This document shows positions 12,001-19,268 of a DNA stretch of 64,000 nt, piece after piece. Below the pieces are notes generated by a model. It worked only from the letters and a program-made list of their open reading frames with translations, had not been told where the DNA came from and did not search any database. Both the position numbers and the translations under genes were made by a program. Positions within the stretch are counted from its first letter, which is position 1; each line of letters opens with the position of its first letter. The DNA comes from Escherichia coli (GTDB taxonomy: Bacteria > Pseudomonadota > Gammaproteobacteria > Enterobacterales > Enterobacteriaceae): assembly GCF_003019035.1 (NCBI RefSeq), contig NZ_CP027447.1; one strand, 5' to 3'.

Positions 12001-12782
12001 TTATCATCAACAGAAATATCAATAAGATACGGGGATGTGGTGCTGCTGGTATAAATTGCTCCGCCATAACCTTCTGCATAGTTATTGGTAAAGGAGGTAT
12101 TATTAATTATCGTTTTTCCTGAAAGATGTGTGTTATCCGTACTATTATCCGTAACATCAATGGCACCGCCGTCCCCATCACTATAGCTGGTTGATGTATA
12201 TGCCTGATTATTATCAAAAATGACATCACTTAAATAAATATCATTATTGATAGAATAAATAGCGCCACCTTTACCATCATTGGCGATATTATTCGCAAAT
12301 ATTGCATTAGTGATATTTAAATCCATATCACCGGCATCGTTTGTTCCCGCAGAATAGATTGCTCCGCCATAGCCTCCTGCAACGTTACTGTCGAAAATAA
12401 CATTCGCAAGATTTATCATTGAGTTTTCTTTAGCAAAGATAGCTCCGCCATTATTATATTCGCCACTAATCGAGTTATTAGCAAACAGGGTCATCCCTGT
12501 TTCATTTTGTGGTGATATCGTAAATTCAGCACTTTGCTGCAAAAATACGGCGCCACCGCTGGCATTATTGGCCATACCCGAAAAAATCACCCATTGCCCA
12601 TCGGCGATGCTCCAGTCCTGCGTAATGCCTGAAAGGCTTTGCCTGCTGGCCTGACAACTCGCTTTGATATCATATCCCTGGCATGAATCCAAAACCTCCG
12701 CGACACTGTTAACAGAGAAAAGAGATGCAATCATTGACGGGAGTAAAGATAAATACTCCTTGCGTAGAAAAATAATCCGCAT
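9018..12782 (-). CDS. yfaL: Autotransporter adhesin (AIDA-I type, YfaL/EhaC)
   Basis: 1254-aa ORF with signal peptide, a long Gly/Asn/Thr-rich beta-helix passenger domain, a Pro-rich linker (PPSPPDPDPTPDPDPTPDPDPTPDPAPAPTP) and a C-terminal beta-barrel translocator ending in W. Confidence 0.9.
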   Translation of the reverse strand: MRIIFLRKEYLSLLPSMIASLFSVNSVAEVLDSCQGYDIKASCQASRQSLSGITQDWSIADGQWVIFSGMANNASGGAVFLQQSAEFTISPQNETGMTLFANNSISGEYNNGGAIFAKENSMINLANVIFDSNVAGGYGGAIYSAGTNDAGDMDLNITNAIFANNIANDGKGGAIYSINNDIYLSDVIFDNNQAYTSTSYSDGDGGAIDVTDNSTDNTHLSGKTIINNTSFTNNYAEGYGGAIYTSSTTSPYLIDISVDDNYDQNNGVMIDENNSASGYDHSATAAAGGFMYIGHSVAEFNIAADKTLVIGNTSNDGAIDSLAGTGVIVKEGAGELVLNADNNAFTGEMSIQNGEVTLGRSDELMNVGDTHCQSDPQDCFGLMVGSTVHSEYQAELNVGNTQQTFVHSLTGFANGILNIDAGGNVTVNQGGFSGSIQGEGQLTVAQDGSYLLTGAQSMALTGDIVVEDNAVLSLAGNQADLRAMQSDPQSIVLNGGVLDLSDFTTWDGDSSYNDGLQISGSGGTVIGSNDVVDISSGDDLHIGGSDASQNGVYVVINAGDQRVTLANNNGYLGNTQIASGTLEVSDNSQLGDTSYNRSVIFTDPQQHSEMDVTTDVDTRSATTGQGRNIEMRADGEIHVEDGVDTQWGGLMADSTGQQLDSVSTLTKSGGGTLELTASGTATSAVRVEDGTLKGEAENIIPYVSSLWVGEDGVFETGQNQDIRSIDATSGGDIDITDGTVLRLTQQDTNQALDASLFSGDGTLVNATDGVTLTGELNTNLETDSLTYLSDVTVNGDLTNTSGAVSLQNGVAGDTLTVNGDYTGGGTLFLDSELNGDDSASDQLVLNGNTAGNTTVVINPITGIGEPTSTGIKVVDFAADPTQFQNNAQFSLAGSGYVNMGAYDYTLVEDNNDWYLRSQEVTPPSPPDPDPTPDPDPTPDPDPTPDPAPAPTPAYQPVLNAKVGGYLNNLRAANQAFVMERRDHAGGDGQTLNLRVIGGDYHYTAAGQLAQHEDTSTVQLSGDLFSGRWGMDGEWMLGAVGGYSDNQGDSRSNMTGTRADNQNHGYAVGLTSSWFQHGNQKQGAWLDSWLQYAWFNNDVSEHEDGADHYHSSGIIASLEAGYQWLPGHGVVIEPQAQVIYQGVQQDDFTAANHARVSQSQGDDIQTRLGLHSEWRTAVGVIPTLDLNYYHDPHATEIEEDGSTISDDAVKQRGEIKVGITGNISQRVSLRGSVAWQKGSDDFAQTAGFLSMTVKW
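9933..10015. repeat. Short tandem repeat inside yfaL encoding the (PDPDPT)n linker
   Basis: Repeating ggatcaggatc / ggatctggagtcgggtctggatc units on the plus strand, corresponding to the PDPDPTPDPDPTPDPDPTPDP linker on the coding strand. Confidence 0.6.
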
Positions 12783-13315
12783 ATTAATCTGACCATCATT
12801 TTCTATAAGACGGCATATTTAATCGCATTATACGATATGGGTTATTTTTCTTTTGTAAATTGTTCAACCCGGTGCAATGGCTATTTTGTTATTATTTCAT
12901 GAATAATATCAGTGCGTCATAATTCAAGTTAATCACCTTAAGGGATATCAGTTATGTTTAAACTGAATTAAAGTAATGAATAATTTTCTTATAATATAAG
13001 GTAAATTAACAAAATGGCTTCGCATTTAACAACAACCGAAGAGAAAACAACCATTTCGACATCAACAATCGCTTACATTCGCTTATATATTGACCATAAC
13101 TGATACATCAGATTATGTGATGACTCGTGCTTAGATCAATTTTTGCAATCATTAGCCAAAAGATTAATAAACCATCTATATCAATTTATCTAACCTATTC
13201 TTCCGTTCAAGAAATCGCCGAACAGTTATTTTTAACAAATTTTTCTCTTCCCATTGACTTTCCCGGACACCTTGTCTGACCTAAGGTGCGCGAAAGCCAC
13301 TTTTTCCTTCCTGAG

Positions 13316-13324
13316 TTATCCACA
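13316..13324 (+). promoter_or_regulatory. DnaA box (TTATCCACA) in the nrdAB promoter region
   Basis: Perfect 9-mer consensus ttatccaca about 150 bp upstream of the nrdA start. Confidence 0.6.
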
Positions 13325-13353
13325 AAGTTATGCACTTGCAAGAGGGCCATTTT

Positions 13354-13400
13354 CACACTATCTTGCAGTGAATCCCAAACATACCCCCTATATATAGTGT
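13354..13400 (+). promoter_or_regulatory. Tandem NrdR-box-like palindromes upstream of nrdA
   Basis: cacactatcttgcagtg (13354-13370) and ccctatatatagtgt (13385-13400) resemble the 16-bp NrdR consensus; centres are about 31 bp apart (three helical turns). Confidence 0.55.
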
Positions 13401-13477
13401 TCTAAGCAGCTTCCCTCACTACAGGTAGTCTGCATGAAACTATTGCGGAAAGAATTCCAAAAACAGGTACGACATAC

Positions 13478-15763
13478 ATGAATCAGAATCTGCTGGTGAC
13501 AAAGCGCGACGGTAGCACAGAGCGCATCAATCTCGACAAAATCCATCGCGTTCTGGATTGGGCGGCAGAAGGACTGCATAACGTTTCGATTTCCCAGGTC
13601 GAACTGCGCTCCCACATTCAGTTTTATGACGGTATCAAGACCTCTGACATCCACGAAACCATTATCAAGGCTGCCGCAGACCTGATCTCCCGTGATGCGC
13701 CGGATTATCAGTATCTCGCCGCGCGCCTGGCGATCTTCCACCTGCGTAAAAAAGCCTACGGCCAGTTTGAGCCGCCTGCGCTGTACGACCACGTGGTGAA
13801 AATGGTCGAGATGGGCAAATACGATAATCATCTGCTGGAAGACTACACGGAAGAAGAGTTCAAGCAGATGGACACGTTTATCGATCACGACCGTGATATG
13901 ACCTTCTCTTATGCTGCCGTTAAGCAGCTGGAAGGCAAATATCTGGTGCAGAACCGTGTGACCGGCGAAATCTACGAAAGCGCCCAGTTCCTTTATATTC
14001 TGGTTGCCGCGTGCCTGTTCTCGAACTACCCGCGTGAAACGCGCCTGCAATACGTGAAGCGTTTTTACGACGCGGTTTCCACATTTAAAATTTCGCTGCC
14101 GACGCCAATCATGTCCGGCGTGCGTACCCCGACTCGTCAGTTCAGCTCCTGCGTACTGATCGAGTGCGGCGACAGCCTGGATTCCATCAACGCCACCTCC
14201 AGCGCGATTGTTAAATACGTTTCCCAGCGTGCCGGGATCGGCATCAACGCCGGGCGTATTCGTGCGCTGGGTAGCCCGATTCGCGGTGGCGAAGCGTTCC
14301 ATACCGGTTGTATTCCGTTCTATAAGCATTTCCAGACAGCGGTGAAATCCTGCTCTCAGGGCGGTGTGCGTGGCGGTGCGGCTACGCTGTTCTACCCGAT
14401 GTGGCATCTGGAAGTTGAAAGCCTGCTGGTGTTGAAAAACAACCGTGGGGTGGAAGGCAACCGCGTGCGTCATATGGACTACGGGGTACAAATCAACAAA
14501 CTGATGTATACCCGTCTGCTGAAAGGTGAAGATATCACTCTGTTCAGCCCGTCCGACGTACCGGGGTTGTACGACGCGTTCTTCGCCGATCAGGAAGAGT
14601 TTGAACGCCTGTATACCAAATATGAGAAAGACGACAGCATCCGCAAGCAGCGTGTGAAAGCCGTTGAGCTGTTCTCGCTGATGATGCAGGAACGTGCGTC
14701 TACCGGTCGTATCTATATTCAGAACGTTGACCACTGCAATACCCATAGCCCGTTTGATCCGGTCATCGCGCCAGTGCGCCAGTCTAACCTGTGCCTGGAA
14801 ATCGCCCTGCCGACCAAACCGCTGAACGACGTCAACGACGAGAACGGTGAAATCGCGCTGTGTACGCTGTCTGCTTTCAACCTGGGCGCAATTAACAGCC
14901 TGGATGAACTGGAAGAGCTGGCAATTCTGGCGGTTCGCGCACTCGACGCACTGCTGGATTATCAGGATTACCCGATCCCGGCCGCTAAACGTGGAGCGAT
15001 GGGGCGTCGTACGCTGGGTATTGGTGTGATCAACTTCGCTTACTACCTGGCGAAGCACGGTAAACGCTACTCCGACGGCAGCGCCAACAACCTGACGCAT
15101 AAAACCTTCGAAGCCATTCAGTATTACCTGCTGAAAGCGTCTAATGAGCTGGCGAAAGAGCAAGGCGCGTGCCCGTGGTTTAACGAAACCACTTACGCGA
15201 AAGGGATCCTGCCGATCGATACCTATAAGAAAGATCTGGATGCCATCGCTAATGAGCCGCTGCATTACGACTGGGAAGCACTGCGTGAGTCAATCAAAAC
15301 GCACGGCCTGCGTAACTCCACGCTTTCTGCTCTGATGCCGTCAGAGACTTCTTCGCAGATCTCTAACGCCACTAACGGTATTGAACCGCCGCGTGGTTAC
15401 GTCAGCATCAAAGCGTCGAAAGACGGTATTCTGCGCCAGGTGGTGCCGGACTACGAGCATCTGCACGACGCCTATGAGCTGCTGTGGGAAATGCCGGGTA
15501 ACGATGGCTATCTGCAACTGGTGGGTATCATGCAGAAATTTATCGATCAGTCGATCTCTGCTAACACCAACTACGATCCATCACGTTTCCCGTCAGGAAA
15601 AGTGCCGATGCAGCAGTTGCTGAAAGACCTGCTCACCGCCTACAAATTCGGGGTCAAAACGCTGTATTATCAGAACACCCGTGACGGTGCTGAAGACGCA
15701 CAAGACGATCTGGTGCCGTCAATCCAGGACGATGGCTGCGAAAGCGGCGCATGTAAGATCTGA
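13478..15763 (+). CDS. nrdA: Ribonucleoside-diphosphate reductase 1 alpha subunit
   Basis: 761-aa ORF with ATP-cone N-terminus (MNQNLLVTKRDGSTERINLDKIHRVLDWAAEG) and the class Ia RNR catalytic core. Confidence 0.97.
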   Translation: MNQNLLVTKRDGSTERINLDKIHRVLDWAAEGLHNVSISQVELRSHIQFYDGIKTSDIHETIIKAAADLISRDAPDYQYLAARLAIFHLRKKAYGQFEPPALYDHVVKMVEMGKYDNHLLEDYTEEEFKQMDTFIDHDRDMTFSYAAVKQLEGKYLVQNRVTGEIYESAQFLYILVAACLFSNYPRETRLQYVKRFYDAVSTFKISLPTPIMSGVRTPTRQFSSCVLIECGDSLDSINATSSAIVKYVSQRAGIGINAGRIRALGSPIRGGEAFHTGCIPFYKHFQTAVKSCSQGGVRGGAATLFYPMWHLEVESLLVLKNNRGVEGNRVRHMDYGVQINKLMYTRLLKGEDITLFSPSDVPGLYDAFFADQEEFERLYTKYEKDDSIRKQRVKAVELFSLMMQERASTGRIYIQNVDHCNTHSPFDPVIAPVRQSNLCLEIALPTKPLNDVNDENGEIALCTLSAFNLGAINSLDELEELAILAVRALDALLDYQDYPIPAAKRGAMGRRTLGIGVINFAYYLAKHGKRYSDGSANNLTHKTFEAIQYYLLKASNELAKEQGACPWFNETTYAKGILPIDTYKKDLDAIANEPLHYDWEALRESIKTHGLRNSTLSALMPSETSSQISNATNGIEPPRGYVSIKASKDGILRQVVPDYEHLHDAYELLWEMPGNDGYLQLVGIMQKFIDQSISANTNYDPSRFPSGKVPMQQLLKDLLTAYKFGVKTLYYQNTRDGAEDAQDDLVPSIQDDGCESGACKI

Positions 15764-18077: not shown

Positions 18078-19268
18078 TTAATGAATTTCTTTTGCCGCTA
18101 CTAGCATGACACCGCTTTTGCCCTTCATTTGCAGCGCATAGACTCCACCAGCCACTACCACTAATAGTGCACCCAGCAGATAAATCATTCGGTAGCCAGT
18201 ATGTGCAACCATCATCCCCATCACACAGGCTCCCAGCGCCAGGCCTGCATCCATCGCATTGAAGAAGAGGGAGTTTGCGACACCGATTTTATGCGGTTCC
18301 ACTGAACTGATAATCTGCGTCTGAAAAACTGGCGTCACGGAACCATACCCGATACCAATCAACGCGCCAGAAACAACCATCATTATGCTTCCCTGGGTGT
18401 AGCCGAGAACCACCAGTCCAACCGTAAAGAACACAAGGCAAGGGTAAACCACATATTTCGGTCCTTTTTTGTCGCAGACATTGCCGGTAAAGGTACGGCA
18501 GATCATCAGGAAGATAGCGTAGCAAAGCAGGAAATTACTGGCTGCCGACATCAGGTTAAGTTCGCGTGCATAAAGCGCCAGAAAAGCAGAAACCCCGGCA
18601 TACGAAAAGGTCATAAAAAAGGTGACCATCGCAAATGGCAACGCCGCGCGATCGAACATGGCGGCGAAGCCCATTTTCGGCGTTGAACCATCAGCATGGC
18701 TGATAACCGGCGGCACTGTCATAATCAGCGACAGAATAATCCCCACCGCTGCCACGCCGGTGCATAACCAGAAAGCCATATTAAAGGCCTCCCAGCGCGC
18801 CATATTCAGGCCAATCCACGGCCCGACCACCATTGCCAGCCCCATTGCCAGAGAGAAAAAACTGATGCCCTCCCCACGTCGGGAGGCCGGGATCAGCCGC
18901 GCGGAAATCGTTCCTTTTACCGTAGTGATAACCCCGAAGGTAATACCATGAAGCACCCGAATAAAAAGCAGTGATTCAATTGAGTGGCAAAAAGGATACA
19001 GCGCAGTGACCACCAAGAAGGCCAGAGAAGAGAGCCCCAGAATAGTTTTATTCGAATATTTGCCCACCCATTGCCCGGCAAAGGGGCGAATAACAATGGC
19101 GGCAATTAAAAATAAAGTCACCAACAAACCTGCTTTATCAGGAGAGGCATGCAAGCGGTCTGAGATATAAATTGGCAACAATGTTAGTAAAACATAAAAG
19201 ACGAAGAAAATAATAAAACTGATGATGGTTATTGCCCAAAAATCCTTCGTCCATAACTTCTCTTTCAT
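18078..19268 (-). CDS. MFS transporter (12-TM, drug/metabolite:H+ antiporter-like)
   Basis: 396-aa highly hydrophobic ORF with MFS loop motifs (GQWVGKYSNK, RLIPASRRGEG). Divergent from a LysR regulator. Confidence 0.8.
   Translation of the reverse strand: MKEKLWTKDFWAITIISFIIFFVFYVLLTLLPIYISDRLHASPDKAGLLVTLFLIAAIVIRPFAGQWVGKYSNKTILGLSSLAFLVVTALYPFCHSIESLLFIRVLHGITFGVITTVKGTISARLIPASRRGEGISFFSLAMGLAMVVGPWIGLNMARWEAFNMAFWLCTGVAAVGIILSLIMTVPPVISHADGSTPKMGFAAMFDRAALPFAMVTFFMTFSYAGVSAFLALYARELNLMSAASNFLLCYAIFLMICRTFTGNVCDKKGPKYVVYPCLVFFTVGLVVLGYTQGSIMMVVSGALIGIGYGSVTPVFQTQIISSVEPHKIGVANSLFFNAMDAGLALGACVMGMMVAHTGYRMIYLLGALLVVVAGGVYALQMKGKSGVMLVAAKEIH

Follow-up and report, generated by a model that had tools for sequence, protein, structure and literature searches.

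A stretch of 64,000 nucleotides of Escherichia coli DNA, referred to here as the window, contains the divergent intergenic region between yfaL and nrdA. The 818 bases around the nrdAB control region match the chromosome of E. coli strain 1190 with 100% identity, and the RefSeq annotation of that strain gives the gene order gyrA-ubiG-yfaL-ypaB-nrdA-nrdB-yfaE-inaA. Because yfaL starts at position 12782 on the minus strand and nrdA starts at position 13478 on the plus strand, the regulatory sites described below lie within 695 bp of intergenic DNA. Beyond inaA, from about 18078–19268 onward (L001 11296–12818), the annotation of the identical strain lists an MFS transporter and a divergent LysR-family regulator. 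The features of the control region, in order from yfaL to nrdA, are as follows:

12782, minus strand: start of yfaL
13207–13350, minus strand: ypaB, an open reading frame of 47 codons annotated in RefSeq, spanning the inverted repeat, both DnaA boxes, and the -35 hexamer
13258–13296, no strand assigned: imperfect inverted repeat just upstream of the DnaA boxes, with a single-stranded DNA fold of -7.2 kcal/mol (z = -2.0)
13316–13324, plus strand: DnaA box 1, TTATCCACA, a perfect match to the 9-mer consensus TTWTNCACA, the same in K-12
13328–13336, plus strand: DnaA box 2, TTATGCACT, with one mismatch to TTWTNCACA, at position 9
13336–13341, plus strand: putative -35 hexamer, TTGCAA, 17 bp before TATCTT
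13353–13368, no strand assigned: NrdR box 0, TCACACTATCTTGCAG, the historically annotated upstream box, in the register of the oligonucleotides in PMC12176259
13359–13364, plus strand: putative -10 hexamer, TATCTT, within NrdR box 0 and separated from TTGCAA by a 17-bp spacer
13369–13477, plus strand: 5' leader of the nrdAB mRNA, approximate, with a predicted start coordinate; about 109 nt, 41% GC, holding NrdR boxes 1 and 2
13385–13400, no strand assigned: NrdR box 1, CCCCTATATATAGTGT, with 6 of 6 critical positions
13416–13431, no strand assigned: NrdR box 2, TCACTACAGGTAGTCT (K-12 allele GTACTACAGGTAGTCT), with a central AG, 15 bp after box 1
13478–15763, plus strand: nrdA coding sequence, class Ia ribonucleotide reductase alpha subunit, 761 amino acids, with the ATG at 13478

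The presence of the motifs, their coordinates, their statistics, and their conservation were determined here, and the binding constants and regulatory effects are taken from published papers. Of 5426 complete E. coli genomes, 5425 carry the core of the control region (13300–13445) in the chromosome at an identity of at least 95%. Compared with K-12 MG1655 the core is 97.9% identical, with three substitutions in 146 bp. The DnaA boxes, the -35 hexamer, box 0, box 1, and positions 3–16 of box 2 are the same in the window and in K-12. One substitution lies at 13347 in the spacer between the -35 and -10 hexamers, with a C in the window and a T in K-12. Positions 1 and 2 of box 2 (13416–13417) read TC in the window and in Escherichia albertii, GT in K-12, and GC in another locus (L003). 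These allele differences within E. coli spare every position that is critical for NrdR or DnaA. The AT-rich upstream part of the intergenic region (12783–13250, 29.5% GC) is far more variable among E. coli than the core promoter. A search with the 818-bp query returned about 1260 records in the identity bands from 80 to 95%, and with the 146-bp core query the chromosomal copies were all at or above about 95%.

The promoter hexamers were placed by hand and by the wording of the published papers, according to which the -10 region and the transcription start site lie under box 0 (preprint 10.64898/2026.05.11.724285). With this placement, transcription would start at about 13368–13371. The nrdA promoter was missed by a simple sigma-70 scan of the intergenic region, as TTGCAA and TATCTT fit just 8 of the 12 consensus positions. 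A scan of the whole 64-kb window against Rfam gave no match, so the leader contains no known RNA element.

A preliminary description of this DNA had recognized an nrdAB control region with a perfect DnaA box and two palindromes resembling NrdR boxes within 170 bp upstream of nrdA. All of these are present, with the DnaA box starting 162 bp upstream of the ATG, and the identification of the region agrees with its identity to strain 1190 (100%) and, across the core, to K-12. The same description had set the sites in a long AT-rich leader, which does not hold. The DnaA boxes are upstream of the -35 hexamer and untranscribed, the leader itself has a GC content of 41%, and the AT-rich stretch is at 12783–13250. 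It had also called on the sites as support for the nrdA start codon. The start codon is right, since it opens the annotated NrdA of 761 residues and an ATG is conserved at this point in all 77 loci compared below, but the regulatory sites add little to the assignment.

DnaA box 1 at 13316–13324 is the sole perfect copy of TTATCCACA in the 64 kb. A single copy is no excess over chance, as 0.43 copies are expected and at least one is present in 36 of 100 shuffled sequences. DnaA box 2 has the same orientation as box 1 and follows it by 3 bp, so that the two boxes form a 12-bp direct repeat; DnaA box 2 ends in a T with which the -35 hexamer begins. Among 25 matches in the window to the relaxed motif TTWTNCACN, this tandem is the sole close pair. 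Such close pairs are expected 0.19 times per 64 kb, and 17% of the null sequences have at least one. By themselves, counts within the window are therefore no proof of function. DnaA box 2 is kept in E. albertii, in the Pseudocitrobacter metagenome bin (L014), and in the copy of this region in phages P1 and P7. On a broader scale, 75 of 77 loci of the Enterobacterales have a perfect TTATCCACA in the 260 bp before nrdA, and its place relative to the promoter varies with the architecture of the region.

According to a review (PMC8203912), the nrdAB promoter has three DnaA boxes, of which two bind DnaA with either nucleotide and the third is specific for DnaA-ATP. DnaA-ADP or a low level of DnaA-ATP at the high affinity boxes stabilizes RNA polymerase at nrdAB, and a high level of DnaA-ATP represses the operon, presumably through exclusion of the polymerase (PMC8203912). 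A second source agrees that oligomers of ATP-DnaA hinder the loading of polymerase at nrdAB. For the action of DnaA at this promoter the review cites Augustin 1994 and Olliver 2010. What DnaA controls at nrdAB seems to be the level of expression and not its timing (PMC8203912). Of the cell-cycle and dNTP-responsive control that had been ascribed to the region, regulation by DnaA through boxes in this promoter region is backed by the review, and cell-cycle control through DnaA is debated (PMC8203912). The imperfect inverted repeat at 13258–13296 is a candidate for the "45 bp inverted repeat" published as an nrd cell-cycle element, although this equation is our own.

Part of the region has a second life on phage-plasmids. 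P7-like phage-plasmids carry about 115 bp that match window positions 13241–13354 nearly base for base. Within the phage copy are the inverted repeat, the two DnaA boxes, and the -35 hexamer. Its similarity stops exactly at the start of box 0, and neither NrdR boxes nor an nrd gene follow downstream. The copy occurs in about 235 E. coli plasmid records (P1/P7-like phage-plasmids), at up to 96.8% identity. Matches to window positions 13241–13354 are located at:

L083, 2420–2562
L002, 3001–3115
L085, 1214–1269
L086, 614–669

The high identity of the copy is to E. coli in particular, which suggests that the phage captured it from its host. The plasmid copies of the DnaA box module were considered as a new observation and set aside, as they are already annotated in the phage P1/P7 records. 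GenBank entry M95666 labels the copy "nrdA-like promoter" with a dnaA box, and AF234172 notes the likeness to the DnaA box region of E. coli. As for ypaB, it may be a mere open frame over regulatory DNA; open reading frames named "Upf" are similarly placed over the P1 copy.

The names box 0, box 1, and box 2 for the NrdR sites follow the renaming by Rozman Grinberg et al. (FEBS J 2025, PMC12176259); the pair of boxes 0 and 1 had been annotated in 2005–2007. The critical positions of an NrdR box are C4, A6, A8, T9, T11, and G13, according to a preprint by the same group (10.64898/2026.05.11.724285). Box 1 has all six. Box 0 has five of six, with a C in place of the A at position 6, and it overlaps the -10 hexamer. 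Box 2 likewise has five of six, as C4, A6, A8, T11, and G13 are present and position 9 is a G instead of a T. On the six critical positions alone, boxes 0 and 2 are therefore equal. Between C4 and G13 of box 2 the AT content is 63%, which is the reported lower limit (10.64898/2026.05.11.724285). Boxes 0 and 1 are separated by a linker of 16 bp (13369–13384), and their centers are 32 bp apart in the published register, or about 30.5 bp if the longer palindrome TCAC...GTGA is taken for box 0. The linker between boxes 1 and 2 is 15 bp (13401–13415). Both lengths fit NrdR operators, whose linkers measure 15–16 or 26–27 bp. Box 1 ends 78 bp and box 2 ends 47 bp upstream of the nrdA ATG.

The boxes were scored with a position weight matrix (PWM), a small and symmetrized one built from the four E. 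coli boxes outside nrdAB, those of nrdHIEF and nrdDG, with sequences from PMC12176259. Over approximately 64,000 positions of the window, box 1 ranks first with a score of 16.9 and box 2 ranks third with 11.2. Box 0 scores 7.8 and ranks 17th; 23.5 sites of this score are expected by chance, so that as a single site it is at chance level. A scan for pairs at a spacing of 31–32 bp places boxes 1 and 2 first, with a score of 28.1, and boxes 0 and 1 second of about 64,000, with 24.7. Both pair scores exceed 21.6, the maximum in 100 null sequences of 64 kb. A minimal rule, which asks for C4 and G13, at least five of the six critical positions, and at least 63% AT, has no discriminating power. It selects 140 sites in the window against 148 expected, it cannot tell box 0 from box 2, and it yields chance pairs at 31 or 32 bp in 53% of shuffled sequences.

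Published binding data separate the two pairs clearly. E. coli NrdR loaded with ATP and dATP bound a probe with boxes 0 and 1 with a KD above 6000 nM, in effect without specificity, and a probe with boxes 1 and 2 of K-12 with a KD of 113 nM, values measured in vitro on K-12 oligonucleotides of 57–58 bp, from which box 2 of the window differs at positions 1 and 2 (PMC12176259). The edge positions of the boxes are reported to have little effect on NrdR binding. In an older gel shift with a 185-bp fragment, mutation of box 0 had no effect and binding was lost when box 1 was mutated (as reported in PMC12176259). The weakness of box 0 has been put down to its C6, and the change C6A raised the affinity about 10-fold (10.64898/2026.05.11.724285). 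Positions 8 and 9 are reported not to be strictly required. The central AT is dispensable, which explains why box 2 works with a central AG (10.64898/2026.05.11.724285).

The pair of boxes 1 and 2 resembles the other NrdR operators of E. coli. Those of nrdHIEF and nrdDG likewise consist of two 16-bp boxes with C4, A6, T11, and G13 and a linker of 15 bp, and their affinities for NrdR with ATP and dATP, 138 and 160 nM, respectively, are close to that of boxes 1 and 2 (PMC12176259). In both of these operators each box has a central AT, in contrast to box 2 of nrdAB with its central AG and its 63% AT between C4 and G13. The nrdAB pair also differs in sitting downstream of the transcription start.

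Together, the scores and the published data change the reading of the two palindromes in the preliminary description. The downstream palindrome (13385–13400) is confirmed as an NrdR box, being the top match to the PWM in the window and experimentally bound. The upstream palindrome (13353–13368) is no longer regarded as a true NrdR box, given the KD above 6000 nM for its pairing with box 1, its C6, and its PWM score at chance level. A PWM scan and a comparison with published maps, the checks that had been proposed, therefore uphold box 1 and go against box 0. The interval that had been marked, 13316–13400, holds box 1, but the partner of box 1, box 2, starts 16 bp past its end.

The architecture was then compared across relatives by a scan for NrdA in species-representative genomes. 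This gave 80 loci from Enterobacteriaceae, Erwiniaceae, and Hafnia, and 77 of them had enough upstream sequence. Four loci share the architecture of the window, here called type E: the window itself, another E. coli, E. albertii, and a metagenome bin of Pseudocitrobacter. Reading toward nrdA, a type E region has the DnaA boxes first, then the -35 hexamer and boxes 0, 1, and 2, and yfaL is upstream in all. Box 1 is invariant across these loci, and three in-phase boxes, at distances of 32 and 31 bp, are present in four of four. In E. coli, E. albertii, and L014, box 2 has retained C4, A6, T11, and G13, and the sequence has diverged in the 15-bp linker before it and in the flank after it. This pattern in three diverged lineages is the footprint that would be expected of a functional site.

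A second architecture, type S, is found in 72 loci, including Salmonella, Citrobacter, Klebsiella, Enterobacter, Kosakonia, Pantoea, and Erwinia. Only from about 18 bp before the ATG onward is the DNA of type S similar to that of E. coli. The type S promoter, CTTGTAC ... TAGAAT, is unlike that of E. coli. It is followed by an upstream NrdR box, ACTCACCATATAGCGT or variants of it, then a linker and CCCCTAYATATAGTRT, with a start-to-start distance of 32 bp in 71 loci and 31 bp in one; the Salmonella-type pair is ACTCACCATATAGCGT-N16-CCCCTAYATATAGTAT. The strong box of type S, CCCCTAyATATAGTrT, is similar to box 1 and has all six critical positions in 72 of 72 loci. In the upstream box, C4, A8, T9, T11, and G13 are present in all 72 loci and C6 in 71, and positions 10, 12, and 14–16 are variable. 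The PWM score of this upstream box is about 11, compared with 7.8 for box 0 of E. coli. At the position of box 2, the type S loci have nothing box-like (mean PWM score -3.9, maximum 6.9).

The DnaA boxes have a different place as well. In type S they are downstream of the NrdR boxes, in the leader, in contrast to E. coli, where they are upstream of the -35 hexamer. A perfect TTATCCACA adjoins the downstream NrdR box of type S, and as a rule it recurs, inverted, about 30 bp farther on. The single Hafnia locus resembles type E, with a DnaA box upstream, followed by GAACACTATCTTGTTA and, 32 bp later, by ACACCACATCTTGTGT. The layout of E. coli is therefore atypical, since the 72 other loci have no box 2 and have their DnaA boxes downstream of the NrdR boxes. 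The E. coli sites in the nrdAB control region are all already in the literature, and the only modestly fresh point is their layout compared with that of the relatives.

Based on these observations, the nrdAB control region very probably combines regulation by DnaA through the tandem boxes with regulation by NrdR through boxes 1 and 2, with box 0 adding little or nothing to binding in vitro. In this arrangement, two DnaA boxes of the same orientation would adjoin and touch a weak sigma-70 promoter (TTGCAA, 17-bp spacer, TATCTT). When DnaA-ATP is low, DnaA at the high affinity boxes would help RNA polymerase, as the literature describes. When DnaA-ATP is high, oligomers spreading over the promoter would block the polymerase, and dNTP synthesis would be tied to the state of replication initiation. 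The pair bound by NrdR in E. coli would be box 1 (13385–13400) and box 2 (13416–13431). As these two boxes are in the early transcribed region, binding of NrdR should repress the operon at high levels of dATP. Loaded with ATP alone, NrdR assembles into oligomers or filaments that leave the DNA unbound, and repression is lifted. A transcription start near 13368–13371 puts boxes 1 and 2 at about +15 to +63, so that bound NrdR would block open-complex formation, promoter escape, or early elongation; the mode of repression is presumably steric.

From the comparison of the loci, box 0 is best read as a degenerate counterpart of the upstream NrdR box of other Enterobacterales and not as a random look-alike. 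It also supplies the putative -10 hexamer, it has drifted farther from the consensus than the type S box, and by published measurement it no longer supports binding together with box 1. Box 2 reads as a lineage-specific box that has replaced box 0 as the partner of box 1.

To write off box 0 may nevertheless be too strong for the situation in vivo, because the upstream box is conserved in type S and its mutation has an effect in Salmonella. There, mutating either NrdR box raised the expression of nrdAB, and only the mutant of the downstream box equalled an nrdR deletion. It is unlikely, but deserves consideration, that box 0 contributes in vivo, for example on supercoiled DNA or through higher NrdR oligomers. 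We are similarly doubtful that box 0 is the ortholog of a family-wide upstream half with C6 that is still at work in vivo, in an operator of three in-phase boxes, 0-1-2, with graded or alternative occupancy across the -10 hexamer and the early transcribed region. If that were true, the Escherichia promoter would have been rearranged, the DnaA boxes having moved from a site downstream of the NrdR boxes to one ahead of the -35 hexamer, and box 2 having newly arisen in their former place.

A three-box operator would have boxes 0, 1, and 2 used jointly or in alternation in vivo, for instance by two NrdR tetramers or a higher oligomer on supercoiled DNA, with box 0 being a deliberately weak site that overlaps the -10 hexamer. 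The three in-phase boxes of all four type E loci are in line with this, as is the ability of NrdR to form higher oligomers (PMC12176259). Moreover, C6 is retained in 71 of 72 type S loci and in all of type E, and so steady a presence of a weakening base suggests selection. Within type E, however, a role as the -10 region and transcription start would suffice to explain why box 0 is conserved, and the gel shift with the 185-bp fragment argues that box 0 is dispensable for binding (PMC12176259). On balance we regard such an operator as quite unlikely.

The annotation of 2005–2007, which the preliminary description followed, makes boxes 0 and 1 the operator, with NrdR covering the -10 hexamer and the transcription start. 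This pair has the canonical linker of 16 bp and a pair score (24.7) above all nulls, and given box 1, the chance that a fixed offset from it carries a site of 7.8 or more is about 4e-4 per position. An upstream box is also kept at -32 (-31 in one locus) in 72 of 72 type S loci, and its mutation derepresses nrdAB in Salmonella. The direct measurements point the other way: NrdR prefers boxes 1 and 2 (113 nM) to boxes 0 and 1 (>6000 nM), and mutation of box 0, unlike that of box 1, left binding to the 185-bp fragment unaffected (both in PMC12176259). In addition, box 0 carries a C at critical position 6, where an A gives about 10-fold more affinity (10.64898/2026.05.11.724285), and its single-site PWM score is at chance level. 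An operator of boxes 0 and 1 in E. coli is therefore very unlikely.

That the motifs are chance matches, or are conserved through the ypaB frame and not through regulator binding, is hardly credible: a single TTATCCACA does arise in 36 of 100 shuffles and the RefSeq annotation of ypaB covers the DnaA boxes, but the NrdR boxes are outside ypaB, the 9-mer is kept in 75 of 77 loci, including type S, where the flanking sequence and hence ypaB are non-homologous, and DnaA acts through the boxes of the nrdAB promoter (PMC8203912). ypaB was accordingly rejected as the reason for conservation, since it leaves the NrdR boxes uncovered and the 9-mer is kept in loci without a homologous ypaB.

The preferred reading, with DnaA at the tandem boxes and NrdR at boxes 1 and 2, also holds a lesson for annotation. 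The textbook NrdR pair of nrdAB has been revised, and a reading of the motifs by the textbook pair marks boxes 0 and 1 and misses box 2. NrdR is under exploration as an antibacterial target. Through this region the supply of dNTPs is coupled to replication initiation, by DnaA, and to the balance of dATP and ATP, by NrdR. As the arrangement of sites in E. coli is unusual compared with that of its close relatives, conclusions on the interplay of DnaA and NrdR may not carry over to Salmonella, Klebsiella, and Enterobacter.
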